64,000 bases of DNA, from NCBI GenBank assembly GCA_964454905.1, contig CAYVTR010000007.1, forward strand, positions 369 through 64,368, in the 5' to 3' direction. Shown here one piece after another: positions 8,651-22,864 of the stretch. The number at the start of each line of letters is the position of its first letter. The stretch's first letter is position 1. Origin of the DNA: an uncultured Woeseia sp. GTDB taxonomy: Bacteria; Pseudomonadota; Gammaproteobacteria; Steroidobacterales; UBA11654. The notes beneath the pieces are model-generated. The model saw only the letters and a program-made list of their open reading frames with translations. It made no database searches and was not told the origin of the DNA. The position numbers and the translations under genes are program-made.

Positions 8651-9487
8651 TTGAAAACAACAAGTCGTATTACTGTTCATAAAAATACTGAAGGTATTAC
8701 TCAAGAAATATCAGATGAAGTTGTCATTGAGGAGCCATTAGAATTTACTATTTGCTTTGGTCCCGCTTCATCTAGGTCTAACAAAAATATTGCTATTACA
8801 ATGCGAACACCGGGCAATGATTTTGAATTAGCCATTGGATTCTTATTTTCTGAAGGTGTGATCAATAATAAACACGATATTCTCTCAGTATCCAGAAATA
8901 AGGGATTAGTCGATGATTCTAATCTTGAAAATACTGTGTTTATTGAGCTCAATGAGTCTGTGAAATTGGACCCAGATAAGATTCGAAATTTTTATATTAA
9001 TTCATCCTGTGGTATTTGTGGTAGCTCAATGGTGGCAGGCATCTCTAAGATACAGCCGATTGATAGTCATGCGAGTAATCTAGAAATTGAAGAGTCTGTT
9101 CTAAGACAACTCCCTGAGAATCTGAGACAAAATCAAGATGCATTCGGAATAACAGGTGGATTGCATGCATCGGCTCTTTTTAATCTCAATGGAGAGATAC
9201 TGCATTTATTTGAAGACGTGGGTCGTCATAATGCATTGGATAAATTAATTGGACAACAGATAAATGAACATGCATTGCCACTGTCCAAATATGGTTTACT
9301 GCTGAGTGGTAGAACCAGTTTTGAGTTAGTGCATAAATCGGCATTAGCAGGAATTCCTATAATAGTAGCAATTGGTGCTCCTTCCAGCTTAGCAATTGAG
9401 GCCGCATGGGAATATGAAATCACTTTGATTGGTTTTTTGAACTCAGATCGTTTTAATATTTACTCTTATCCAAAGAGAATAGTTTGA
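8651..9487 (+). CDS. fdhD: formate dehydrogenase accessory sulfurtransferase FdhD
   Basis: SSCGICGSS and EDVGRHNALDKLIG motifs. TTG start as in the ORF track, so the start is uncertain. Confidence 0.8.
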   Translation: MKTTSRITVHKNTEGITQEISDEVVIEEPLEFTICFGPASSRSNKNIAITMRTPGNDFELAIGFLFSEGVINNKHDILSVSRNKGLVDDSNLENTVFIELNESVKLDPDKIRNFYINSSCGICGSSMVAGISKIQPIDSHASNLEIEESVLRQLPENLRQNQDAFGITGGLHASALFNLNGEILHLFEDVGRHNALDKLIGQQINEHALPLSKYGLLLSGRTSFELVHKSALAGIPIIVAIGAPSSLAIEAAWEYEITLIGFLNSDRFNIYSYPKRIV

Positions 9488-10465: not shown

Positions 10466-11395
10466 CTAGCCATCTACTGCCAAGATAGACTTTTCTGCAC
10501 TCCTAACCTTGGTTATCAGCATCGTACCTAATCCAATGATGAAGAGTGATAAATAAGGCTCGTAAGGCCAAAATGGCAGCCACAATACCAGATCTGAAGA
10601 CCACGCTGACGCGGTCAAAAAATCAGTAACACGTTCTTGCCAATAGAGCCCGGGAACTGACCAAATAAGACCAAAGACGATAATGATGCCGCCCAATGCC
10701 CTAAGTGCAAGCGGCATGTTGTTCTCAGCGGCATTCTTATTCGTGGTTTGCCAGCGTTGCTTGCCCCAGGCTGCAATTCTCAGTGCGAACGCAAGAAAAC
10801 CACCCCAGTAGTACACATAGTCAAGTGGTACCGGATTCTCATAACAGGAGAGCCCGTTACAGAGACTCCACCAATAGGTGCTAAAGGGATAGGCCCAGAG
10901 GAAATAGATCCCACTCTTGTGCAGCAACTTCCATTGTTTAGAGCTCAAGTGTTTACGGCCAAAGTGGAAAGATGTCACCACCATGGCGGGAAGAAAGATA
11001 TAGCCGATGCTCCCTTCTAGCTCATCACGAAACAGATAGACTTCTTCAAAGTAGTAATTGTGAAAAAAGTAAGACATTATAAAAATGAACAAGCCTTGCC
11101 ATGCCATGGCAACTGCAAAACATAATCCAATATATTTTCGGTTACGCATTAACCACATTGAGAAGGGTCCTGGATATAGAATCTGAATCGAAGATATTGC
11201 AACTACTAGATAGATGAAAGGCACTGCCCAGCGCACAGAAAACCCAATCATTTCTGACACACCAGATCCAGTTGACATATCAACCCCCATCATGGCAATG
11301 ACCATGATCATGCACATTGGAATAGAAATAAGCCAGAACAAATTCCATTTGTTAATGACTCTATTCTTTAATGTTGTTTTAAGATCAGTACTCAT
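10466..11395 (-). CDS. polytopic inner-membrane protein, unknown family
   Basis: 309 aa, Trp-rich, with about 8 hydrophobic segments. The 3' two-thirds of the gene is visibly more GC-rich than its surroundings. Confidence 0.6.
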   Translation of the reverse strand: MSTDLKTTLKNRVINKWNLFWLISIPMCMIMVIAMMGVDMSTGSGVSEMIGFSVRWAVPFIYLVVAISSIQILYPGPFSMWLMRNRKYIGLCFAVAMAWQGLFIFIMSYFFHNYYFEEVYLFRDELEGSIGYIFLPAMVVTSFHFGRKHLSSKQWKLLHKSGIYFLWAYPFSTYWWSLCNGLSCYENPVPLDYVYYWGGFLAFALRIAAWGKQRWQTTNKNAAENNMPLALRALGGIIIVFGLIWSVPGLYWQERVTDFLTASAWSSDLVLWLPFWPYEPYLSLFIIGLGTMLITKVRSAEKSILAVDG

Positions 11396-11733: not shown

Positions 11734-12369
11734 TTAGGTGTCATACCTAATAAATAAGTTACCTTCCATTTCTCTTTTGATACTTGTTTGCGGTCCATGA
11801 CCAGTAATCACAACGGTGGATTCATCCAAAGAATAAATCTTTTCCTGGATTGAGCTCTTAAGCATTTTAAAATCACCTCCAGGTAAATCAGTTCTTCCCA
11901 CAGATCCTTGAAACAAAGTATCACCAGCAATTAACAGTTTTTCTGATTCAAAATGGAAACTAACAGATCCAGGTGTATGCCCTGGTGTATGAATGCAAAC
12001 TCCTGAACAGTGAGTTAAATCTTGTTGATCTTCAATATTAAAATCAGGCGGTGGTGTGGGTTTAAAATCAATATTAAAATAACTGCATTGCATTTCTAGG
12101 GTGTCCCAAAGAAATCTATCGGATTCATTTAGGAAGATCGGTGCACCTGTTTTCTCTTTAATTTCTGCCGAAGCTAAGAAATGATCAAAATGGGCATGAG
12201 TATGATAAATAGCTTCAATGGATAAATTCATGCTGCTTATTGTTTCTAAAATTCTTTCTGCATCTCCGCCAGGGTCAATCAGATAACCTTTCCCAGTTGA
12301 GCTATTACCAATAATCGTGCAGTTGCACTGCAAAGGACCTACTGGGAATGATTTGTAATTAATTGTCAT
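11734..12369 (-). CDS. MBL-fold metallo-hydrolase, YcbL/GloC-like glyoxalase II
   Basis: HTHAHFDH metal motif, HTPGHTPGS, GDTLFQGSVGRTDLPGGD and ITGHGP. The 211-aa length matches the short GloC-type enzymes. Confidence 0.75.
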   Translation of the reverse strand: MTINYKSFPVGPLQCNCTIIGNSSTGKGYLIDPGGDAERILETISSMNLSIEAIYHTHAHFDHFLASAEIKEKTGAPIFLNESDRFLWDTLEMQCSYFNIDFKPTPPPDFNIEDQQDLTHCSGVCIHTPGHTPGSVSFHFESEKLLIAGDTLFQGSVGRTDLPGGDFKMLKSSIQEKIYSLDESTVVITGHGPQTSIKREMEGNLFIRYDT

Positions 12370-12410: not shown

Positions 12411-14081
12411 ATGTATCAGTCCATAGAAAATTTATCCATTCAGAGACATTTTGTAAATCTGGGCTCTCGTCAAGTCCATTATAGAATCTCAGGCTCTGGG
12501 CCCGTTTTGGTTCTTTTACATCAAAGCCCAACATCATCAGCTGAGATGGCAACTGTTATTGAGAACTTAAGTGATGAGTTCACGGTTATTGCTCCTGATA
12601 CTCCAGGTTTTGGCCTGTCTGACTTCATTGATGGAATTGAGCCAGATATTTCACAATACGCAGAAGCTTTAAAGGAGTTTCTGGATGCATTAGAAATAAA
12701 CCAAGCTTGTTTTTATGGTTTTCATACGGGAGCAATCATAGCCACTGAAATCGCTCGTCTTTACCCAGAACTCTGTAATGCTGTGGTGGTAAATGGCTTA
12801 GTTGTTTTAGAGCCTGAAGAAGAAGCTGGCATCCTAAAACACTACACTAAATGGTTTGAGCCTACACCTGAAGGAAGTCAGATGTCATGGATTTGGTCAA
12901 GAATTAGAGACCAACTAATTTTTTTCCCTTGGTTTAAAAAAGAATTAGGAAATAAGATGAGTATTGATCTTCCAAACCCAGAATTCCTTCAGCCCTATAT
13001 TTTAGATTTACTTCGATCCAATGAGGCTTCACAAACAGCTTATCAGGCGGCTTTTTTATATCCCTCAAGGGAACGTATAAGAGAATTACAAGTCCCAACT
13101 TTTCTTATTAACCATGAGGGCGACCCAATCGCAGATCACCCCAGAAGACTCAGTAATCTACCAAATAATGTGGTTATTGAGCAGTTATCAGATCCAGTGG
13201 CAGTGGAAGAAAGGTCCAGAGAGATTTTTAACAAATATTCTGTAAATAAAGATTATATCCACAACAATACTAGCGATCGTTTGCGATCAGGAAAACAAGG
13301 GTTTGCACCAACGACTCATGGCTCTATCTATTATTCAGTTGAAGGTAATAATGTAGAAAACACAGTGCTTTTCCTTCATGATCTCGGTCAATCATCCAGA
13401 GCAGAATTATTTCATTCAATAAGGATAAAAGATTCATTAAAATTATACGTTGATCTTCCAGGACATGGCGAAACAGGACCAACGCATTTAACCAACTATT
13501 CTCCTCAATCAATAGTTGGAATGCTTAAAGAGACCCTTAATTATCTAGGTCTTTCAAATCTCTCCATTATCAGTGTTGGGGCTTCTGTACCTATCGCTTT
13601 ACGATTATCCGAACAAACAAATTTAACCATAGACAATCTAGTCTTAATAGATCCTTGGTGTTTAAGTGAGCTAGAAAAAGAAAAATATATTGAGAATTAT
13701 GTGCCTGACATTACACCCAGTCAATATGGAGAGCATCTTATGAGGTCCTGGTATTTTGCAAGAGACAGCGAACTTTTTTTCCCTTGGTTTGAAGCAAAAT
13801 CCTCGACTGCATTGAATCGTCCGCCAGATATTAAAGCTGAGAGTGTCCATGAAAAAGCAGTCGAAATTTTGAAAGCTGGGCCAGGATTAAAGCTAGTGGC
13901 AAAAGATTTGATTGGATATGATATTCGAGAGGATTTAGAAAATTTTTCTCAAAAGCTAACAATATTTATTTGGCAAGGTAACTTAAGAGAGATTTTTGCA
14001 GAAAGAATTAATAACCAACTAGATGATGTACAGATTAATTATTTACCAGAAGATAAAAATGACTGGTTAATTGAGTTTTAG
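12411..14081 (+). CDS. protein with two tandem alpha/beta-hydrolase-fold-like halves
   Basis: First half: PVLVLLHQSPTSSAEM...VIAPDTPGFGLSD...FYGFHTGAIIA. Second half: TVLFLHDLGQSS...YVDLPGHGETG...IISVGASVPIAL. Both halves are followed by a FFPWF motif. Confidence 0.65.
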   Translation: MYQSIENLSIQRHFVNLGSRQVHYRISGSGPVLVLLHQSPTSSAEMATVIENLSDEFTVIAPDTPGFGLSDFIDGIEPDISQYAEALKEFLDALEINQACFYGFHTGAIIATEIARLYPELCNAVVVNGLVVLEPEEEAGILKHYTKWFEPTPEGSQMSWIWSRIRDQLIFFPWFKKELGNKMSIDLPNPEFLQPYILDLLRSNEASQTAYQAAFLYPSRERIRELQVPTFLINHEGDPIADHPRRLSNLPNNVVIEQLSDPVAVEERSREIFNKYSVNKDYIHNNTSDRLRSGKQGFAPTTHGSIYYSVEGNNVENTVLFLHDLGQSSRAELFHSIRIKDSLKLYVDLPGHGETGPTHLTNYSPQSIVGMLKETLNYLGLSNLSIISVGASVPIALRLSEQTNLTIDNLVLIDPWCLSELEKEKYIENYVPDITPSQYGEHLMRSWYFARDSELFFPWFEAKSSTALNRPPDIKAESVHEKAVEILKAGPGLKLVAKDLIGYDIREDLENFSQKLTIFIWQGNLREIFAERINNQLDDVQINYLPEDKNDWLIEF

Positions 14082-14091
14082 GAGGAACAAG

Positions 14092-15666
14092 ATGTCTGAC
14101 ACGAATAAGAATGTTGTTAAAGTGCTTAAAGCAGCAGTAGGAAAAGATAATGTTTTGACAGATCAAGAATCCCTGTCTTTCTATTCAATGGATGTTTATC
14201 GATCTATAGAAACACCCATAGCAGTTGTTCAACCAGGATCCACAGAGGAGCTTCAAGAAGCTGTACGAGTAGCGACAGGTTTAGATGTTGCTATAGTAAC
14301 GCGTGGAGGAGGAGCATCATACACTGATGGCTACCTTCCCACCACTGCTGAATCAGTCATTGTCGATACTTCTCGACTTAATAAGATTCTTGAGATCAAT
14401 GAAGAGGACATGTTCATTACTGTTGAACCTGGGATTACTTGGGCGGAAATGACTGACGCATTAGCTGAGAGTAATTTAAGAACACCTTTTTGGGGACCCT
14501 TTTCAGGATTAAAAGCAACAGTTGGTGGTTCAACTTCACAAAATAGTGTAAGTATGGGAACCAGTAGATACGGAGGATCCCCAGAGTCAATACTTTGTTA
14601 TGACATTGTTTTAGCAAATGGCGATATTCTGAAAACAGGCTCTTCTGCAATGGAACAAAGTTCACCATTTTTCAGGCACTATGGACCCGATTTAACCGGC
14701 TTATTTTCTGGTGATGCTGGGTCATTGGGTGTTAAGGCAAAAATTACACTGCGTCTAATAAAGTTACCCAGTCATAGTCTCACTTGTTCTTTTGGTTTTA
14801 AGAGCTACGATGCCATGAGCCAGGCGATGGCAGCTGTAGCAAGAGAAGAGTCAGCTTCAAGTAATTGGGGCTTGGACCCTAAATTACAGCAGGGTCAGCT
14901 TGGTAGCACTTCATTCAGTGATGCGCTCAAAGCCGCTTTTGCTGTTTTAAAAACAGCTCGTAATCCATTTGAGGCTTTTGTTCAACTGGGTAAGATGGCC
15001 CTTGCAGGAAAGCGATTTTTAACTGGTTACGATTATTCAGCTCACTTTGTCGTAGACGGCTATTCAATCAGTGAAGTCAAAAGTAAATTGGCACAAACTA
15101 GAAAAGCACTGTCTCCTTACGGCACAGAAATTGCAAACACCATACCAACAGTTCTAGGCGCGATGCCTTTCATGCCTCTTTATCCTATTTTAGGACCTCA
15201 AGGAGAGAGGTGGGTTCCGATGCATGGCTTATTGTCTTTTTCAAAAATGCAGGAGATGCATCAGCGATTAATGGATCTTTACAGAGAAAAGAAAGGTGAA
15301 ATGGAAGAATGTTCAGTTTATGCAGGTGCAATGTATATGACGTATTCCACACATAGTTTCCTCTATGAGGTGGCTTTATATTGGCAAGACGATCGGACTG
15401 TTTATCATAAACTTTACTTGGATCAAGACTATCTTGATATGCTACCAACTTACCCTGAAAATAAAAAAGGCAGAGCTTTAGTTGCTGAACTTCGCGCTTC
15501 AATTCAGGAAATATATTCAGATCTTGGTGCCGTTCATTTTCAAGTAGGAAAGAGCTATCCATATCAAAAAGGCAGGCAAACTCTAGCCGCTGAAACTCTA
15601 AGGGCAATAAAGAAGTCGGTGGATCCAAAGAATCTAATGAATCCAGGAGCACTAGGCCTTGAATAG
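14092..15666 (+). CDS. FAD-binding (PCMH/VAO-type) FAD-linked oxidase
   Basis: The FAD-binding N-terminal domain (VVQPGSTEELQEAVRVA...IVTRGGGASYTDG) and the typical C-terminal tail KSVDPKNLMNPGALGL. I chose the ATG at 14092, which follows AGGAGG. The track starts at a TTG at 14071. Confidence 0.8.
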   Translation: MSDTNKNVVKVLKAAVGKDNVLTDQESLSFYSMDVYRSIETPIAVVQPGSTEELQEAVRVATGLDVAIVTRGGGASYTDGYLPTTAESVIVDTSRLNKILEINEEDMFITVEPGITWAEMTDALAESNLRTPFWGPFSGLKATVGGSTSQNSVSMGTSRYGGSPESILCYDIVLANGDILKTGSSAMEQSSPFFRHYGPDLTGLFSGDAGSLGVKAKITLRLIKLPSHSLTCSFGFKSYDAMSQAMAAVAREESASSNWGLDPKLQQGQLGSTSFSDALKAAFAVLKTARNPFEAFVQLGKMALAGKRFLTGYDYSAHFVVDGYSISEVKSKLAQTRKALSPYGTEIANTIPTVLGAMPFMPLYPILGPQGERWVPMHGLLSFSKMQEMHQRLMDLYREKKGEMEECSVYAGAMYMTYSTHSFLYEVALYWQDDRTVYHKLYLDQDYLDMLPTYPENKKGRALVAELRASIQEIYSDLGAVHFQVGKSYPYQKGRQTLAAETLRAIKKSVDPKNLMNPGALGLE

Positions 15667-15670
15667 GCAA

Positions 15671-17461
15671 ATGAAAAATTCAATAACCCTGCTACTGACC
15701 ATCCCTTTATTAGCCTGTTCTCAGTATTCTGATCAATTACAAACCAAACACCCTCCATACAATGAAAGACCTAGAGTAGGGGTTCTTTATGTGTCTCACG
15801 GAGGAAATGAAACGTATGGTGAAAAACAGGTTTGGGAATCCACTGTTCAAATTTTTTCGTACGATAAGAACAGTCCAGTCTATCAGCGAATTTTGTGGAA
15901 CCCTGATTATTGGCCTCAATTCTATGGATTTGGGAATGCGACAAAAGAAATAGGCAAGTATTCTTTTGAATATGAGCGAATAGGGGGTGTTGACCCCTAC
16001 CCGAAATCTAAAGCTGAACTCACTCAACATTTAGTTGAACTGATGAATGCTTATGAAAATAAATACGAAATGGATTTTATTGTAGATAAAATGTCTTGGT
16101 TAAGTCCCGAGATAGTCGAATTAGCCAATCCAAGAAGGCTGTACTACCCAGGAACAGAAGATGGCTCAATACTGGCTTATTGTGGCAAGGGAGATGACTC
16201 ATGGTTAGACTGTAATCCTGATCGATATGATATTGATGGACCCATCGAGAGACTTCTAAAGATAGGTGTTGAGCGATTTATAATTGTGGATCTAACAACA
16301 GCCGGTGCTCGTTTTTCTAAAACCTTCGACGTATACACCGTAGCTAAGCAGGTTATTGATAAGCATAATCAAGCCACAGGGGAAAACGTGGTTATTGAAT
16401 GGGTTAATGATCCAGATAATCTGATGGTGAAATCATACCCACAGGATGCATCTGGATGGACACGATCTAAGGGTAAACCTGAGATCAACCCAATTATTGC
16501 AATTTCAGATTTCCCTAATCCTGTTATTGAAGACCTGAGATTAGCTAAATTCCAAGTGGAGGGTATTGCATCACAATTTAATGAAAACGTGTCACTTAAG
16601 GACACGGGTGTTCTCATGATTAATCACGGAATTCGAAATGGTGATGAAGTATTTGATCCAAAAATTAACGACACGCTTACTCTTAATAAGAACATTAAAA
16701 ATCTCTTACTTCAAAACTTTCCTGAATTAAAAACACAAAATATTTTAGGAGGTTGGTTTGGTGAAATGGTTATCAATCAAAGAGTGAAACCATCCCCACC
16801 GGCTTTCACACAAATGGAAAGGACTCGGGAAATGCGAGGAGAGAATTTAGGTTATATCGTCCTTCATGACAGCGATGGTGAAGTACCAGCAGGTGAATGG
16901 GGTTATCGTTATTGGGAAGCTCTTGATCAACTAAAGAAAAATAAAGTCAAGCATATCGTCATTGTATTTCCTCAAATCATGGAAAATTCTGTTTTAAACC
17001 TTGTTGAAGTTCCCAATCAGATAGCCAAAGAGATTGGTTATAAGAATTGGCTGCATTTCGATACATTGGATTTTGATACCTACCCAGAATACGGTCACCC
17101 CTTTGCTGATTATTGGGGAATATGGGTGTCAACGTCATGTGCTATTCCTTCGGATACTAATCAATCTGAGCAGTGTTGTTTAACCATGGGGGGTTGCTCA
17201 ACTGGGCAATCATACCCACCACCTCGGCAAGCTAAGCTTAATGAGAGACGCAATGATCTAGATCCTTCTTTGGCTTATGATGTTTCTGAATTTGGGCACT
17301 TAGGCTATAGGTCTGCGTTAGGTGCTCCAAATCTCAGTCAACCCGTCCAAAATCAATATTCAGGAACTTGGTCAATGTGGAAAGTGACCGAAGATCACCA
17401 CGCTTTAGCTAAGTTTCTTGCAGATAAGGTCGTTGAACATATAGAATCAAGTCAAAATTAA
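15671..17461 (+). CDS. lipoprotein with ferrochelatase/CbiK-like (class II chelatase) two-lobe architecture and Cys-rich C-terminus; function unknown
   Basis: Lipobox in MKNSITLLLTIPLLAC-SQ. By-eye similarity to ferrochelatase blocks (GVLYVSHGG; YERIGGVDPYPKSKAELTQHL; GVERFIIVDLTTAGARFS; GVLMINHGI; KHIVIVFPQIMENSVLNLVEV). Five Cys occur in STSCAIPSDTNQSEQCCLTMGGCSTG. Confidence 0.5.
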   Translation: MKNSITLLLTIPLLACSQYSDQLQTKHPPYNERPRVGVLYVSHGGNETYGEKQVWESTVQIFSYDKNSPVYQRILWNPDYWPQFYGFGNATKEIGKYSFEYERIGGVDPYPKSKAELTQHLVELMNAYENKYEMDFIVDKMSWLSPEIVELANPRRLYYPGTEDGSILAYCGKGDDSWLDCNPDRYDIDGPIERLLKIGVERFIIVDLTTAGARFSKTFDVYTVAKQVIDKHNQATGENVVIEWVNDPDNLMVKSYPQDASGWTRSKGKPEINPIIAISDFPNPVIEDLRLAKFQVEGIASQFNENVSLKDTGVLMINHGIRNGDEVFDPKINDTLTLNKNIKNLLLQNFPELKTQNILGGWFGEMVINQRVKPSPPAFTQMERTREMRGENLGYIVLHDSDGEVPAGEWGYRYWEALDQLKKNKVKHIVIVFPQIMENSVLNLVEVPNQIAKEIGYKNWLHFDTLDFDTYPEYGHPFADYWGIWVSTSCAIPSDTNQSEQCCLTMGGCSTGQSYPPPRQAKLNERRNDLDPSLAYDVSEFGHLGYRSALGAPNLSQPVQNQYSGTWSMWKVTEDHHALAKFLADKVVEHIESSQN

Positions 17462-17482
17462 AAAGGGAAACAGGAAAAGAGT

Positions 17483-18346
17483 ATGTCAATCAAGTTATTA
17501 AGGAGAGATTTTCTTATGGGTCTTGGTTTGGCTACTGTTTTAGCATCAGATAATACCAAGAGTATAGTCAGTGGAAGCATACCAAGTTCAGCTCCTGACT
17601 TGAGTTTACCGGTGAATAATTTAATTAACTTAATACGAATGCAATCAAGCTTAGGAAATGAGGATCAGGTGCCGTGGCATTATAATGGCACGCTCTATTT
17701 TCAAAAAGGCTCTGAACAACCAATTCCAATGATCAAGATAGAAGGGATGGAGAGTTACAAGGTCATCCCTCAAGAAGACGGTTCTTATGAGATTTTAGGC
17801 AATATGCTGACTTTTTTTAGGGATTTAGACTCCGGCGAAATGATTAGGGAATTTAAGAATCCGTTTACTGGGGAAGTTAATAGAATATTACCTAACATTA
17901 GACGAGCAAGCTTAGGCAGAGGATTGAATATCTCAACCATGGGTGTGAGGCCAACTGCCTTTATTGAGAAAATGGCTGATGATCCTTTAATTTTAGATTG
18001 GACATTTGGCCCCAAGACCATTTGGCTGCATAATCAAACAGCATACCCACCTGGACTATCTGCTCCAAGGATGCAACGCATGACAATGTTTGCACCAATA
18101 GAAGAGTTCCTAGATAAAGAGGCTCTCTCTTTGTCAACCATGTTCACTGCCACCGTTTTAATGCCGTGGCTTCCATGGATGGGCATGGATAATATTGAAG
18201 GCCATACTCTTTGGCATGCATCAGGGGTTAAATTAAACTCAATTGACCAGCTTCCAGAAGAATATTACACAAGAATGATGGAAGAGCACCCAGAGTTATC
18301 TAGATTTAACCTGCAAGAAGACACTGGTCCAGTTATTTATGAATGA
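17483..18346 (+). CDS. Tat-exported DUF1838-like protein
   Basis: Twin-arginine signal MSIKLLRRDFLMGLGLATVLAS. The core GTLYF...IEGMESYKVIPQEDGSYEILGNMLTFFRDLDSGEMIREFKNPFTGEV matches my recollection of the DUF1838 pattern. Confidence 0.55.
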   Translation: MSIKLLRRDFLMGLGLATVLASDNTKSIVSGSIPSSAPDLSLPVNNLINLIRMQSSLGNEDQVPWHYNGTLYFQKGSEQPIPMIKIEGMESYKVIPQEDGSYEILGNMLTFFRDLDSGEMIREFKNPFTGEVNRILPNIRRASLGRGLNISTMGVRPTAFIEKMADDPLILDWTFGPKTIWLHNQTAYPPGLSAPRMQRMTMFAPIEEFLDKEALSLSTMFTATVLMPWLPWMGMDNIEGHTLWHASGVKLNSIDQLPEEYYTRMMEEHPELSRFNLQEDTGPVIYE

Positions 18347-18361
18347 TTATTATTATCCTTT

Positions 18362-18814
18362 ATGATCACTTTTGAAAATCTAAGTTTATTTATCCTAGTT
18401 CTCTTGATGGGCTGCAGTGATCAAAAGAGTGTTGACAATGATCAACAGGACATTGCATTAGCTAATACAGTTGATACAAGAGAACTAATCACTATTGATG
18501 GCGATTTAGAAAGGGGTAGAAAGCTTTATTTGCAATGCCGTGCATGCCATTCATTAAAAGAAAATGAGCCTCACAAAATAGGTCCTAATTTGTTTAAAAT
18601 AATTGGCTCAACAGCAGGCAGCATGAAAGGCTATAATTACTCAGATGCTTTATCAAAGAGTGAAATTCTTTGGACTATAGAAAACCTTGATCTTTGGTTA
18701 GAGAAACCTTATGAGATTATCCCTGGTAATAAAATGGTTTTTTCTGGTATGAGAAAACAAGAAGACAGAAATGATTTAATTGCATACGTTTATGATGAAA
18801 CCTCTGAGGAATAA
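18362..18814 (+). CDS. class I c-type cytochrome (cytochrome c2-like), lipoprotein
   Basis: Lipobox LVLLMGC-SD. Haem motif CRACHSL followed by HKIGPNL, and a distal Met context PGNKMVFSG. Confidence 0.85.
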   Translation: MITFENLSLFILVLLMGCSDQKSVDNDQQDIALANTVDTRELITIDGDLERGRKLYLQCRACHSLKENEPHKIGPNLFKIIGSTAGSMKGYNYSDALSKSEILWTIENLDLWLEKPYEIIPGNKMVFSGMRKQEDRNDLIAYVYDETSEE

Positions 18815-18880: not shown

Positions 18881-19558
18881 ATGAGTTCAGATACTTTTCT
18901 AGGAATGCTTGCAGATTCACCATTCTCTGGACTACAAGATCATATGGCGCTGGGCAATAAAGCCACAGACTCGCTGGAAAAATTTTTAACCGCTGTTTCC
19001 CAATCAGATTGGAGCACTGCTTTAGAATGCAGAGAGGAAATTGTTCATTTAGAGAACCAAGCGGATGACATAAAAAATAATATTCGAAACAACCTTCCAA
19101 CATCACTTTTTATGAGTGTTTCAAGACAGGATTTATTGGATTTAGTGTTTACAATGGATGGCATTCCTAATGCAGCAAAAGATATTTCAGGGGTAATGAT
19201 TGGGAGAAAAATGGAAATCCCAAAAGAGATCCTAGAAAGTTTTATTGATTGTTCTAAGGCTGCCATCAAAGCAGCCAATCAAGCATCCGATGCGATTAGA
19301 AAAGTAGACGGCATGCAAAAAAGAGGTTTTGGTTCTCGTGATGCATCAGCATTAAGTGAGCTCGTCGTTGAATTAGAGCAAATGGAAAGAGAAAACGATG
19401 AATTAGAAATAGCCTTACGCAATAAATTTTTTGAATATGAGAAACAACACGATCCTGTAGAAGTTATGTTTTTCTATGATGTAATCAATAAAATTGGTTC
19501 CCTTGCAGATATTTCTCAAACTGTAGGACATCTTCTGGTGCGTTTAGTATCAAAATGA
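18881..19558 (+). CDS. DUF47 / TIGR00153-family PhoU-like phosphate transport regulator
   Basis: Colinear with the E. coli/B. subtilis DUF47 proteins that precede pit genes (SPF..LQDHM...; LFMSVSRQDLLDLV; PVEVMFFYDVI..IGSLAD). Confidence 0.8.
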   Translation: MSSDTFLGMLADSPFSGLQDHMALGNKATDSLEKFLTAVSQSDWSTALECREEIVHLENQADDIKNNIRNNLPTSLFMSVSRQDLLDLVFTMDGIPNAAKDISGVMIGRKMEIPKEILESFIDCSKAAIKAANQASDAIRKVDGMQKRGFGSRDASALSELVVELEQMERENDELEIALRNKFFEYEKQHDPVEVMFFYDVINKIGSLADISQTVGHLLVRLVSK

Positions 19559-19575
19559 TTTAAGGAAAAAGATTA

Positions 19576-20841
19576 ATGGAAATAATTATGGAATATGGCT
19601 ATATCTTGCTGATTATTGGCTGTGTTTGTGGTTTCTTTATGGCTTGGGGTATTGGTGCAAACGATGTTGCTAATGCTATGGGCACTTCTGTAGGTGCTAG
19701 AGCATTAACTTTATGGCAAGCTGTTTTAGTCGCATGTGTGTTTGAATTTGCAGGCGCTTATCTTGCAGGTGGCGAAGTTACATCAACAATTCGTAAGGGA
19801 ATCATTGATGCAGGAGTTATGTCTGACAGTCCTGAATTATTGGTTTATGGAATGATCGCTTCATTGCTAGCTGCAGGAATTTGGTTATTAATTGCTTCTT
19901 ACTTTGGTTGGCCTGTTTCAACAACTCATTCCATTGTGGGAGCAATAGTTGGGTTTGCTGCTGTGGGCATAGGCTTTGATGCTGTAAAATGGGGACAAGT
20001 TGGCTCAATTGTTGCCAGTTGGGTAGTGTCACCAGTTATGGCTGGGACAATTTCTTTTCTGTTATTCACAAGTGTTAAAAGATTAATTCTGCAAACTTCA
20101 GATCCTTTTATGAGTGCAAAAAGATATGTTCCTTTCTATATGTTTCTTGCTGGTTTTGTTGTTTCAATGGTGACTTTTTTAAAAGGTCTAAAACATGTTG
20201 GCCTAAGTTTTACTGCATCTGAAAGCATTGCATGGTCACTTGTCTTTGCTTTGATCATTTCTTTATTAGGAACACTGATGTTGCAAAGAATTGATAACAC
20301 AAGAAAAGAAAAGAATGGCGCTATGTTTAATGGCGTTGAAAGAGTTTTTGCAGTTCTCATGGTGTTTACAGCTTGTGCCATGGCTTTTGCTCATGGATCA
20401 AATGATGTGGCTAATGCCATAGGTCCTCTAGCAGCAATTGTTTCAGTAGTGCAAAGTGGAGGAGAGATAGCCTCTAAATCAATGTTGCCGCCATGGGTCT
20501 TATTGATCGGAGCATCAGGTATTGTTATTGGATTGGGTACGCTTGGTTACAGAGTCATGATGACCGTGGGCAGAGCCATTACAGAACTCACTCCAAGCAG
20601 AGGTTTTGCAGCTGAACTAGCGGCTGCAGGAACAGTTGTTATTGCTTCCGGAACAGGCCTACCAATCTCGACAACACATACCCTCGTTGGAGCAGTTCTA
20701 GGTGTTGGTTTAGCTAGAGGCATCGGCGCGATTAATTTAGGTGTGGTTGGGAAAATTATCCTATCTTGGATTGTAACTTTACCAGTGGGTGCTGGTTTGT
20801 CTATTCTGTTTTTCTTTGCATTAAAGGGAGCTTTTGGTTAA
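19576..20841 (+). CDS. inorganic phosphate transporter, PiT family
   Basis: The duplicated signature GANDVANAMGTSVG / GSNDVANAIGPL. 421 aa and polytopic. Confidence 0.9.
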   Translation: MEIIMEYGYILLIIGCVCGFFMAWGIGANDVANAMGTSVGARALTLWQAVLVACVFEFAGAYLAGGEVTSTIRKGIIDAGVMSDSPELLVYGMIASLLAAGIWLLIASYFGWPVSTTHSIVGAIVGFAAVGIGFDAVKWGQVGSIVASWVVSPVMAGTISFLLFTSVKRLILQTSDPFMSAKRYVPFYMFLAGFVVSMVTFLKGLKHVGLSFTASESIAWSLVFALIISLLGTLMLQRIDNTRKEKNGAMFNGVERVFAVLMVFTACAMAFAHGSNDVANAIGPLAAIVSVVQSGGEIASKSMLPPWVLLIGASGIVIGLGTLGYRVMMTVGRAITELTPSRGFAAELAAAGTVVIASGTGLPISTTHTLVGAVLGVGLARGIGAINLGVVGKIILSWIVTLPVGAGLSILFFFALKGAFG

Positions 20842-20847
20842 TTGAAA

Positions 20848-21912
20848 ATGACAATAAAAATGATACATTCTCTATCATTCTTATTCTTAGGACTCTTAAT
20901 AATTCACTCTGATTCCACACAGGCATCGAATATAGAGACATCATTTGATTTTAGATTTCGTTATGATTACACAGATGATGATAGCAATTCTACAAAACGT
21001 AGACGGAACAGAATACGCACAAGACTAGGCGCTCAATATTCGCCTAATGAACGATTAAAAATCAAAATCAGGTTTGCTACAGCCGAGGAAAACACCACAG
21101 GTGCTAATCAAACTCTTGGCCATGATTTTAGTTTAAGTGATATTGGTATGGATCAGTTATATATTAATTTTTCGCTAATGGGTAATACTTATATTTCACT
21201 TGGTAAAATGACTAATCCTTTCTTTAAACCTAATAAAAGCGAGTTACTTTTCGATGCAGATTACACTCCTGAGGGAGTGGCTTTATCTTTTAATGAAGGT
21301 GATATTTTTGGCAACATTGGGTTTTTTAAGTTTGATGAAAGTTCATCGAAAACATCTAATATTCTTGGTTTTCAGATTGGCTTAAGCAATAAAATCACAA
21401 ATCAAACAAGTTATAAGATTGCTCTTGCTCAATATAACTTTGATGATATTAAGGGCAGATCTGCGTCTGATATTACTTGGAATGGCAAAATATTTGGCAA
21501 CCCTGTTGATGCCAATAATAACTACCTGAATAATTATAATGTCACCAATTTCTCTGCTGAGATTCAGACAAAATTAGGTACGGATACAATCCCAACAACA
21601 ATTTTTTTAGATGTTGCAAGGAACTCTAAAGCACATGACAATGATCTGGGTTTTCAAATAGGAGCCAAACTGACTTTAAGTGATCTTTGGAACGTTGCCT
21701 ATCTTTATAAGGACGTCGAGAAAAATGCTGTTTTTGGCGCTTTAACTCATTCAGATTTTGGAGGAGGTGGCGTAGGTCATAAAGGACATCAGCTTAATGT
21801 TGGCTATACTTTTTCAAAAAAACTTAGTGTTGAATTCATTTGGTTTGATAATAAGAAAGAGATGAAAATTGATTATAAAAAAGCTTTTTTTGACCTTAAG
21901 TATAAGTTCTAA
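20848..21912 (+). CDS. putative outer-membrane beta-barrel porin
   Basis: Signal peptide (MTIKMIHSLSFLFLGLLIIHSDSTQA), alternating beta-strand pattern, and a C-terminal aromatic residue (..FFDLKYKF). Its position after pit suggests anion/phosphate entry, which is inference. Confidence 0.55.
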   Translation: MTIKMIHSLSFLFLGLLIIHSDSTQASNIETSFDFRFRYDYTDDDSNSTKRRRNRIRTRLGAQYSPNERLKIKIRFATAEENTTGANQTLGHDFSLSDIGMDQLYINFSLMGNTYISLGKMTNPFFKPNKSELLFDADYTPEGVALSFNEGDIFGNIGFFKFDESSSKTSNILGFQIGLSNKITNQTSYKIALAQYNFDDIKGRSASDITWNGKIFGNPVDANNNYLNNYNVTNFSAEIQTKLGTDTIPTTIFLDVARNSKAHDNDLGFQIGAKLTLSDLWNVAYLYKDVEKNAVFGALTHSDFGGGGVGHKGHQLNVGYTFSKKLSVEFIWFDNKKEMKIDYKKAFFDLKYKF

Positions 21913-21919
21913 GAGCAAG

Positions 21920-22864
21920 TTAGTTGGTTCCCCATCCTCCCTCTGAGTAACCTTTAGGTAGACCAGAATCTACAGTAAAACCATAGAGTTCTTCGTTAGG
22001 AAGGCACGTCTTAACAATTCTATTAACTTCTATTAAGGCTTCAAGATCAATGCCTGTTTTTAGCCCCATTGAGTCGAGCATAAACACTAAATCTTCAGTG
22101 ACGATGTTGCCACTAGCACCTGGTGCAAAAGGACAGCCGCCAATTCCACCAAGAGATGAATCTAAGGTCATGATCCCTTCCTCAAGAGAAGCAAGAGCAT
22201 TAGCCAGTCCTAGCCCTCTAGTATTATGCAGATGCATACTGGTTAAATTATTATGGCCAATTTCTTTTTTGAGTAAACGAATTAGTCTTTTGATTTGTGC
22301 CGGATTTGCATAACCAGTTGTATCAGATAGACCCACTTCATCACAGCCCAATTCCATCATTTTAACACCTAGAGAGACCACATCTTTTTCAGAAACTTTT
22401 CCTTCAATAGTGCACCCAAAAGCAGTGGATAAATTACCCTCAAACTCCGGTCTCTCATTTTCATTTAGAGTGTTTAAGTACTCAGTAATTTTTCCAATTT
22501 CTTTCAAAACTTCATCATGGGTTTTTTTTAAATTTGCTTGACTGTGAGTTTCACTAACAGACAAGGGTAGACACATTTTATCAACCCCTGCATCAATGGC
22601 ATTTTTTGCTCCTATAAAATTAGGAACTAAGGCCACAACAGTAAGATTTGGAAGGCTTTTTGCATATTTAACAATCTCTGAAGTATCCGCCATTTGTGGT
22701 AACAAGTTTGGTGGAACAAAAGAACCCACTTCAATTTCTCTAACTCCTGCTTCTGCCTCAGCTTTTATCCATTTTTTCTTGTCACTAGTAGACATAATGG
22801 TATCTATACTTTGTAAACCGTCTCTTGGTCCAACTTCACTCACTAATACATCAATATCAGACAT
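21920..22864 (-). CDS. hydroxymethylglutaryl-CoA lyase family (HMGL-like) enzyme
   Basis: EVGPRDGLQS, EVGSFV, MHLHNTRGLGLANA and GGCPFAPGASGN are typical of HMG-CoA lyase. Confidence 0.85.
   Translation of the reverse strand: MSDIDVLVSEVGPRDGLQSIDTIMSTSDKKKWIKAEAEAGVREIEVGSFVPPNLLPQMADTSEIVKYAKSLPNLTVVALVPNFIGAKNAIDAGVDKMCLPLSVSETHSQANLKKTHDEVLKEIGKITEYLNTLNENERPEFEGNLSTAFGCTIEGKVSEKDVVSLGVKMMELGCDEVGLSDTTGYANPAQIKRLIRLLKKEIGHNNLTSMHLHNTRGLGLANALASLEEGIMTLDSSLGGIGGCPFAPGASGNIVTEDLVFMLDSMGLKTGIDLEALIEVNRIVKTCLPNEELYGFTVDSGLPKGYSEGGWGTN

Follow-up and report, generated by a model that had tools for sequence, protein, structure and literature searches.

A candidate composite operon in an uncultured Woeseia sp. 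that joins a lipoprotein of predicted ferrochelatase-like fold to flavoprotein, DUF1838 and cytochrome c genes

Organization of the locus

The window analysed here is a stretch of 64,000 nucleotides (contig CAYVTR010000007.1) from an uncultured Woeseia sp., and the subject of this report is a block of five same-strand genes within it, designated g1, g2, G3, g4 and g5 (Table 1). An earlier note on this DNA had described the five open reading frames (ORFs) as one operon linking two cytoplasmic enzymes to three exported proteins. The coordinates and the intergenic gaps in the ORF listing (10, 4, 21 and 15 nt for g1–g2, g2–G3, G3–g4 and g4–g5, respectively) were confirmed, and all five family and topology assignments hold in Pfam, in NCBIfam and in the signals read from the sequences. 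The ATG starts of g2 and G3 fit the lengths of their homologues (524 and 596 aa, respectively). The five genes are not one conserved unit: G3 is an add-on between g2 and g4 in two lineages. Sigma-70-like and terminator-like sites are no commoner within the block than in shuffled sequence, so that a single transcript is neither supported nor contradicted by them.

Table 1. Positions of the five-gene block, of its neighbours in the window and of selected genes in other loci (compared loci are identified by number)
Feature	Locus	Position	Strand	Product	Remarks
FdhD/NarQ-family gene	window	8651–9487
Multi-pass membrane protein gene	window	10466–11395	-	309 aa
MBL-fold (GloB-like) hydrolase gene	window	11734..12369	-		Pfam Lactamase_B 8.5e-36
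g1	window	12411..14081	+	556 aa
g2	window	14092..15666	+	524 aa	ATG start; alternative upstream TTG at 14071 possible
G3	window	15671..17461	+	596 aa	ATG start; alternative TTG at 15659 possible
g4	window	17483..18346	+	287 aa
g5	window	18362..18814	+	150 aa
DUF47/PhoU_div, PHO4 and porin genes	window	18881–21912	+
HMG-CoA-lyase-like gene	window	21920–22864
Bilin-reductase-like gene	L078	7059–7826		255 aa	Pfam Fe_bilin_red 6.7e-15
CoxS/PaoA-like 2x[2Fe-2S] gene	L083	10026–10490
CoxS/PaoA-like 2x[2Fe-2S] gene	L086	10577–11044
CoxS/PaoA-like 2x[2Fe-2S] gene	L092	9454–9918

The genes g1, g2, g4 and g5

The product of g2 is a VAO/PCMH-type oxidoreductase linked to flavin adenine dinucleotide (FAD), with a Pfam FAD_binding_4 match (3.6e-32) and a short FAD-oxidase_C tail. 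Its sequence matches in the PDB cover the FAD domain alone and comprise glycolate oxidase (1.6e-25), p-cresol methylhydroxylase (PCMH; ∼1e-21) and D-lactate dehydrogenase; the PCMH chains 1dii and 1wve match at 1.3e-21 with an alignment limited to residues 5–250, and every NCBIfam match is far under its cut-off. The family is large (2625 matches at E ≤ 1e-20), with listed members of about 518–550 aa and one of 594 aa, and no signal peptide was found among those listed. Neither g1 nor g2 carries a signal peptide.

The g1 protein adopts a tandem double α/β-hydrolase fold by family assignment, with Pfam Abhydrolase_1 (4e-17) at residues 31–148 and an Ndr-like half at residues 301–452; the two halves match each other in blastp (E = 3e-6), as expected of an internal duplication. 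The nucleophile elbow of the N-terminal half (residues about 100–106) reads G-F-H-T-G, with His replacing the expected Ser, Asp or Cys, and this motif is invariant in nine g1 orthologues as well as in the 37%-identical orthologue of L086, a locus without G3 in which the gene occupies the same place upstream of g2. The Ser of the C-terminal half is not kept in the distant L086 orthologue. Ordinary hydrolase chemistry is therefore doubtful, and the sequence suggests that g1 may not be a hydrolase.

The g4 protein belongs to DUF1838 (PF08894; Pfam E-value of 6e-18 and 65.9 bits versus a cut-off of 25), a domain present in all listed g4 homologues but one truncated sequence. Its twin-arginine motif (LLRRDFLMGLG), a signal of the twin-arginine translocation (Tat) pathway, has an RR pair that is invariant in 23 homologues, and RR signals also occur in the b-type DUF1838 paralogues examined (L083b, L084b, L086b and L087b) and in the DUF1838 proteins of Rhodospirillaceae. 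The AlphaFold2 (AF2) model, with a predicted local distance difference test score (pLDDT) of 86, is all-β and barrel-like. No PDB sequence match and no convincing structural neighbour were found for g4 [best template-modelling (TM) score ≤ 0.28]; lipid-binding barrels (the ApoB/vitellogenin/MTP barrel, MucB and PagP) make up most of the weak structural neighbours. A family-wide His/Met cofactor ligand was considered and rejected, since the DUF1838 paralogues do not retain H241 and H245 of g4. In the literature, the name DUF1838 was found solely in two gene-cluster tables, and nothing was found for PF08894.

The last gene, g5, encodes a class I c-type cytochrome lipoprotein with a lipobox (LMGC, followed by S), the haem motif CRACH and, further on, the segment ...GNKMVF...; it matches Pfam Cytochrom_C and the CycA c550-like NCBIfam model (7.5e-21) and is a probable electron acceptor.

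Operons without G3

In other Gammaproteobacteria the remaining genes occur in unchanged order in operons that lack G3 and that usually contain a second DUF1838 gene and one for a CoxS-like 2x[2Fe-2S] protein. The L086 operon reads Lhr, SnoaL, g1-like (37% identity), g2 (62%), DUF1838 (48%), a DUF1838 paralogue, Fer2+Fer2_2 and cytochrome c (51%), where the paralogue carries both an RR motif and a lipobox and the Fer2+Fer2_2 protein is CoxS-like and signal-less. G3 is not in this operon, and the same genome carries it elsewhere beside a gene for a high-potential iron–sulfur protein (HiPIP; L047). The same split is seen in a second complete genome, with the G3-less operon at L087 and G3 at L020; both sets of genes are thus present yet unlinked in these genomes. 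L083 and L084 contain DUF1838, a DUF1838 paralogue, Fer2 and cytochrome c, with g2 too in L084; L085, which is cut short, contains g2–DUF1838; and L092 reads SnoaL–g2–DUF1838–Fer2–cytochrome c. The g2 gene lies immediately upstream of the DUF1838 gene in L084, L085, L086, L087 and L092 (with a 4-nt overlap in L086), SnoaL/LEH-like genes immediately precede the operon in L085, L086, L087 and L092, and orthologues of g5 (41–51% identity) terminate it in L083, L084 and L086, with an equivalent cytochrome c in L087 and L092. Throughout, the signal-less g2 and Fer2 genes adjoin Tat-signal DUF1838 genes.

L092 has flanking genes of the same kinds as the operon of the window, namely an MBL-fold gene at one end and Porin_5 and HMGL-like genes at the other; since this locus has no G3 and does have Fer2, the gain of G3 and the loss of Fer2 are placed in the lineage of the window. 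No Fer2, DUF1838b or HiPIP gene is present in the window. The treatment of the five genes as a unit did not survive the comparison of neighbourhoods: the full set is confined to some nine closely related Woeseiaceae-like loci, and g1–g2–g4–g5 exists without G3 (L086, L087, L092, L083 and L084). It follows that g1–g2–g4–g5 is the older, conserved operon and that G3 was gained later, between g2 and g4.

The CoxS/PaoA-like 2x[2Fe-2S] genes of L083, L086 and L092 (Table 1) stand between DUF1838 and cytochrome c genes with no molybdopterin or FAD_binding_5 partner, which is an unusual context for such genes.

The G3 family and its predicted fold

G3 is a 596-aa lipoprotein of the general secretory (Sec) type (lipobox LLAC, followed by S) with a conserved Cys/His-rich C-terminal extension. 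It gave no Pfam or NCBIfam match (E ≤ 0.01) and no PDB sequence match at E ≤ 10 except one spurious match. All of its 628 homologues are unnamed or `hypothetical', one of them, BST96_02805, from the cultured Oceanicoccus sagamiensis; they span the Gamma- and Alphaproteobacteria and the Thermodesulfobacteriota, and include pelagic Woeseiaceae-like metagenome-assembled genomes (MAGs) and sponge symbionts. The best genome match to the window is L003, an `uncultured Woeseia sp.' MAG, with 97% identity in the G3 protein. An exhaustive profile search of 1.84 billion representatives returned only 183 matches (the family itself, as ∼10 full-length clusters plus fragments) and no remote relatives. The family is compact and isolated in sequence space. 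A Pfam scan of longer, possibly fused members was uninformative, and an hhalign comparison of the N-lobe with the C-lobe gave a probability of 3%.

Across 22 sequences of 48–87% identity, more than 100 positions are invariant, including five His (H43, H319, H428, H476 and H543) and six Cys (171, 181, 490, 502, 503 and 509). Signal peptides in the family are of the Sec or lipoprotein type and never of the Tat type, which argues against an Fe–S cluster and favours disulfides and a cofactor acquired in the periplasm. For that reason an Fe–S cluster bound by the four C-terminal Cys, an idea taken from human ferrochelatase, is disfavoured.

The AF2 model of G3 has a pLDDT of 76 and a predicted TM score (pTM) of 0.83. 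A Foldseek search against the PDB returned, at E ≤ 1e-3, ferrochelatase chains as all of the top 43 matches, with E-values from 9e-9 to 2e-4, a probability of 1.00 and TM(target) values of 0.52–0.64; the next match is the periplasmic CbiK(P) (E = 0.02, TM 0.22–0.44). G3 is accordingly modelled with a two-lobed, ferrochelatase-like (class II chelatase) α/β fold around a central cleft; this bears out a likeness to ferrochelatase and CbiK that the earlier note had guessed from the sequence. Model confidence is low in two of the most conserved loops, 456–486 (with H476) and 531–547 (with H543); low confidence in conserved loops is common for ligand-dependent sites. H43 (YVSHGG) directly follows strand 35–42 and H319 (MINHGI) directly follows strand 312–318, each the first strand of its lobe; in CbiX/SirB and in HemH, a His at such a position is the catalytic one. 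Where the second lobe of G3 has MINHGI, the sequence of E. coli HemH is LSYHGIP. The catalytic pair of Bacillus subtilis ferrochelatase is His183/Glu264. An hhalign alignment of G3 with E. coli HemH (E = 0.014, probability 3%) covers a topologically equivalent helix–strand–helix segment of the C-lobe and sets the invariant L442 of G3 at the position of the HemH catalytic Glu, a placement as weak as the alignment itself. By sequence, G3 does not fall into the Ferrochelatase, CbiK or CbiX families in Pfam, NCBIfam, PDB or hhalign comparisons, or in the 1.84-billion profile search.

G3 and the ferrochelatases (CpfC/HemH) thus share the two-lobed Rossmann-like fold and, in the second lobe, the His that comes directly after the first strand, and human ferrochelatase likewise has a Cys-bearing C-terminal extension. 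In contrast to the ferrochelatases, G3 has roughly double the length, leaves the cytoplasm as a Sec lipoprotein, has Leu at the weakly aligned Glu position and is found among HiPIP, cytochrome c and DUF1838 genes rather than among genes of haem biosynthesis. The nearest precedent for a periplasmic chelatase-fold protein is CbiK(P) of Desulfovibrio vulgaris (PDB entries 2xvx and 2xvz), which also places a class II chelatase fold outside the cytoplasm and binds haem; the IhtB lipoprotein of Porphyromonas gingivalis is likewise a protein of this fold outside the cytoplasm. CbiK(P) differs from G3 in being ∼260 aa long, in belonging to the CbiK sequence family and in matching the model much more weakly than the ferrochelatases do, and none of HiPIP, cytochrome c, DUF1838 and flavoproteins has been described in connection with it. 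Haem dechelatases already known (HmuS/BtuS, which are class I and CobN-like) and the proteins of the YfeX/EfeB claims were also considered and belong to families unrelated to G3.

Genes near G3 in other genomes

Neighbours of G3 were counted within 6 kb in 80 loci, each from a different GTDB species, 47 of which have full flanks. A DUF1838 gene is present in 33 of the 80 (24 of the 47 with full flanks), in both co-directional and divergent orientation, g2 in 23 and a g5-type cytochrome c in 11. A HiPIP gene with a Tat signal follows G3 on the same strand at a distance of 12–47 nt in 13 loci, and a gene for a dihaem c-type lipoprotein lies directly downstream in two. A major facilitator superfamily (MFS) transporter recurs in 13 loci and a VanA-like Rieske oxygenase in 11, the latter in two different arrangements; the Rieske protein matches VanA_C and not the PaO domain, and its top NCBIfam match is a sterol monooxygenase (SdmA-like) under the cut-off. 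Genes for short-chain dehydrogenases/reductases (SDRs), luciferase-like monooxygenases and acyl-CoA dehydrogenases also recur.

The arrangement varies with lineage. G3–g4(–g5) occurs without g1 and g2 in a sister group (L010–L014), the order g2–G3–g4 is found at 47–57% identity in Candidatus Foliamicus and allied gammaproteobacterial MAGs, and in Rhodospirillaceae the DUF1838 genes beside G3 are divergently oriented. The neighbours that hint at tetrapyrroles are each restricted to one clade or one locus.

In the Rhodospirillaceae loci L063, L065, L074, L076 and L080, G3 is found beside varied subsets of a Rieske oxygenase, TldD, the haem A synthase CtaA, a signal-peptide-bearing chlorophyllase/PAF-AH-like hydrolase and a signal-peptide-bearing CpeT/CpcT-like protein, and a divergent Tat-signal DUF1838 gene is nearby in L065, L074 and L080. 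In L078, from a MAG of a non-phototrophic member of the Thermodesulfobacteriota, the gene directly downstream of G3 encodes a protein resembling ferredoxin-dependent bilin reductases (Table 1), with a weak RCC_reductase match besides, and an α/β-hydrolase gene lies upstream.

Flanking genes in the window

The MBL-fold gene is divergent from g1, 41 nt away, and is found in the same place in the related loci L003–L015 and L049; L092 also has an MBL-fold gene there, and distant loci do not. It is a conserved flank, and its position does not make it a member of the system. The gene for the multi-pass membrane protein (Table 1) is conserved upstream of the MBL-fold gene in L003, L010, L011, L014, L015 and L049. 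Its product has no Pfam match and a weak MsrQ-like NCBIfam match (1.7e-6) far under the cut-off; if it were an MsrQ-like haem-b protein, it could donate electrons to periplasmic partners. Further out, the FdhD/NarQ-family and HMG-CoA-lyase-like genes flank the region; both families also occur near the G3-less operon of L092, which helps to date the insertion of G3.

Beyond g5, a 66-nt gap is followed on the same strand by DUF47/PhoU_div, PHO4 and porin genes. Phosphate and polyphosphate genes recur beside the operon: relatives (L083, L086, L087, L010 and L011) are flanked by PhoB–PhoR–PhoU–PstS, CHAD, PPK2 and Ppx, with PPK2 and Ppx located between g4 and g5 in L010 and L011. Because Pho genes are conserved as neighbours, the window was scanned for Pho boxes, and matches to a simple E. 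coli-type consensus were at chance level.

Proposed function

We propose that the block is a composite operon encoding an uncharacterized periplasmic oxidoreductase system wired to high-potential soluble electron carriers, an account to which we give about an even chance. It rests on the pairing of signal-less cofactor proteins with a Tat-signal DUF1838 protein and a terminal lipoprotein cytochrome c, and on the position of G3 beside a one-electron carrier. Module A (g1, g2, g4 and g5) would be the ancestral operon, vertically conserved in this part of the Gammaproteobacteria and supplemented in relatives by a second Tat-signal DUF1838 protein and the signal-less CoxS-like 2x[2Fe-2S] protein. 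The signal-less FAD and Fe–S subunits would fold in the cytoplasm and probably cross the membrane together with their DUF1838 partners, by means of the Tat signal of the latter; the exported subunits would then oxidize a probably hydrophobic substrate in the periplasm, and cytochrome c would take up the electrons and deliver them to the respiratory chain, as in flavocytochrome c dehydrogenases.

Module B would be G3, placed as a Sec-exported lipoprotein between g2 and g4 in a lineage without the Fe–S protein. Elsewhere among bacteria G3 and the gene for a HiPIP or a dihaem cytochrome c make up a separate pair, from which we infer that G3 is a redox-active periplasmic protein. It is probably a Sec-exported redox metalloprotein or tetrapyrrole-binding protein; its ligand, a metal ion or a tetrapyrrole, would occupy either the chelatase cleft or the Cys/His-rich C-terminal extension, and G3 may act on the same substrate or in the same pathway as the DUF1838 proteins. 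The links of the system to tetrapyrroles, metals and lipids are hints. The HiPIP and cytochrome c neighbours strengthen the tie to periplasmic electron transfer put forward in the earlier note. Its view of two cytoplasmic enzymes stands as far as both lack a signal peptide and is uncertain for g2, a possible passenger of the Tat-signal DUF1838 protein.

Module A has its nearest precedents in PCMH-type flavocytochromes and in enzymes of the PaoABC/IorAB type, but DUF1838 proteins take the place of their substrate domain or molybdopterin subunit. Flavocytochrome c dehydrogenases such as PCMH (PchCF) resemble the operon in that a VAO/PCMH-type FAD subunit is encoded with a small class I cytochrome c. 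In the operon, however, g2 and g5 never adjoin each other, the substrate domain of g2 does not resemble that of PCMH, and PCMH has no counterpart to DUF1838 (or to the CoxS-like Fe–S protein of relatives) as extra obligatory partners; the periplasmic place of g2 in this comparison presupposes co-export with g4. The Tat `hitchhiker' enzymes PaoABC and IorAB, periplasmic aldehyde oxidoreductases, have CoxS-like Fe–S subunits. The operons of relatives likewise encode a Fer2+Fer2_2 subunit (PaoA, 1.3e-33; XdhC-like), beside a Tat-signal protein and cytochrome c, and one Tat signal in these relatives appears to serve several cofactor-bearing subunits. The gene pattern of hitchhikers is present, with Tat-signal DUF1838 next to signal-less g2 or Fer2. 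Unlike PaoABC/IorAB, however, these operons have DUF1838 in place of a molybdopterin subunit and FAD_binding_4 rather than FAD_binding_5, and the operon of the window has no Fe–S subunit at all.

Several observations weigh against the composite-operon proposal. About half of the G3 loci hold none of the other four genes, and eight of the 47 with full flanks have no tracked partner family. Two opposite-strand genes split g4 from g5 in L010 and L011, so that part of the g5 linkage may be inherited synteny; the Lhr and Pho-gene flanks are conserved as well, and much of the conservation of Module A could be vertical synteny among related orders. Co-transcription rests on the 4–21 nt spacing. The g2 protein, signal-less like its listed homologues, may simply be cytoplasmic, in which case the path from flavoprotein to cytochrome c would be broken. 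His241 and His245 of g4 are not conserved across DUF1838, and for G3 the Sec signals make an Fe–S cofactor unlikely and no redox cofactor site was identified.

Alternative explanations

The fold of G3 could be read more literally, as that of a true (de)chelatase or tetrapyrrole oxidoreductase acting in the periplasm, with haem, porphyrins or derivatives of chlorophyll gathered from seawater as its substrates. DUF1838 and CpeT-like barrels would hold the macrocycle, α/β-hydrolases would strip its ester side chains, and electron carriers would shift the metal or ring between redox states; a Rieske oxygenase and bilin-reductase-like enzymes would complete the breakdown in the cytoplasm. We regard this as unlikely. 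It would account for a ferrochelatase match that is specific and well ahead of other two-lobed folds, for the invariant His after the first strand of each lobe (YVSHGG and MINHGI, in the position of the catalytic His of CbiX/SirB and HemH) and for the exported chlorophyllase/PAF-AH-like and CpeT/CpcT-like proteins (L063, L065, L074, L076 and L080), the Rieske oxygenase (11 loci), the L078 bilin-reductase-like gene (6.7e-15) and CtaA in Rhodospirillaceae, as well as for a sub-threshold BchO-like NCBIfam match of g1. Yet each such neighbour is limited to one clade or locus, the Rieske protein is of the VanA_C and not the PaO kind with a sterol monooxygenase as its best NCBIfam match, G3 lies outside the Ferrochelatase, CbiK and CbiX sequence families, and an invariant Leu takes the HemH catalytic Glu position in the sole profile alignment (E = 0.014, probability 3%). 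HiPIPs and cytochromes c, being high-potential, are also poor reductants for haem iron. The tetrapyrrole or metal role suggested in the earlier note stays conjectural, with the chelatase fold and the scattered neighbours as its basis and the Leu in that weak alignment against it. Improbable to a similar degree is the periplasmic oxidation of a hydrophobic, lipid-like substrate (a sterol, isoprenoid or alkyl-aromatic), in which g2 would resemble the cholesterol, alkylphenol and alditol oxidases of the VAO family, DUF1838 barrels would solubilize the lipid, SnoaL/LEH and α/β-hydrolase proteins would act on epoxides or esters, and G3 would have an accessory part in binding or redox chemistry. The SnoaL/LEH-like genes directly upstream of Module A (L085, L086, L087 and L092), the resemblance of the N-terminal half of g1 to epoxide hydrolases, dehalogenases and HsaD, the recurrence of SDR, luciferase-like monooxygenase, acyl-CoA dehydrogenase, MFS and SdmA-like Rieske genes near G3, and the lipid-binding barrels among the weak structural neighbours of g4 are consistent with such a substrate; all of these similarities, however, are sub-threshold or generic (TM ≤ 0.28 for g4), no sterol or terpene pathway genes occur within the operon of the window, and the pairing of a ferrochelatase fold with HiPIP is left unexplained.

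Periplasmic metal redox handling appears distinctly unlikely. Fe(II), Cu(I), Mn(II) or a metalloid would here sit at the His/Cys sites of G3, and the exchange of one electron with HiPIP or cytochrome c would serve uptake, detoxification or energy. This would be in keeping with the five invariant His, six invariant Cys, Sec export and chelatase fold of G3 and with the HiPIP gene right beside it in 13 species and the dihaem cytochrome c gene in two. In Acidithiobacillus (Iro) and Rhodopseudomonas (PioC), a HiPIP takes part in iron oxidation. The genes that recur near G3, however, are MFS transporters and catabolic oxidoreductases, with no recurring metal transporter, metallochaperone or metal-responsive regulator among them, the six Cys may merely form disulfides, and g1, g2 and DUF1838 would be left without a role. 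We think it equally doubtful that the five genes have no joint function, G3 having been inserted by chance into an older operon in which g1 and g2 serve cytoplasmic catabolism and g4 and g5 an unrelated periplasmic process. The modules are indeed separable, and the flanks (Lhr, MBL, Pho genes, porin and HMGL) show strong vertical inheritance. A chance insertion is nevertheless hard to reconcile with a G3–DUF1838 linkage that recurs co-directionally in Gammaproteobacteria and divergently in Rhodospirillaceae, with the g2–G3–g4 order kept at 47–57% identity in Candidatus Foliamicus and allied MAGs, with the persistence of G3–g4 without g1 and g2 (L010–L014), or with gaps of 4–21 nt, which argue for co-translation.

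Biological significance

No characterized pathway combining the five families was found in curated families, the PDB or the literature, in agreement with the earlier note, and a literature search on G3, on the function of DUF1838, on the operon and on periplasmic ferrochelatase-like proteins returned no paper or curated model. The G3 family is well populated and strongly constrained, yet has no Pfam model, name or literature, and an exported ferrochelatase fold genetically tied to HiPIP or cytochrome c occurs in no described system; the chance that a new class of enzymes is seen in G3 is appreciable. A bolder idea, which we consider a long shot, is that G3 founds a class of exported redox-coupled chelatase-fold enzymes that insert, remove or oxidize the metal of a tetrapyrrole, or oxidize the macrocycle, with HiPIP or cytochrome c as the one-electron partner, and that together with Tat-exported DUF1838 barrels they would form a new envelope pathway for salvaging or degrading haem- or chlorophyll-derived tetrapyrroles in marine and symbiotic Proteobacteria.

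Independently of G3, the comparison gives DUF1838 a first functional context, as Tat-signal partners of signal-less FAD and Fe–S proteins in cytochrome c-linked operons, and thereby makes this family of unknown function directly testable. If G3 does handle periplasmic tetrapyrroles or metals, it would bear on the acquisition of haem iron by marine heterotrophs and on the recycling of chlorophyll pigments.

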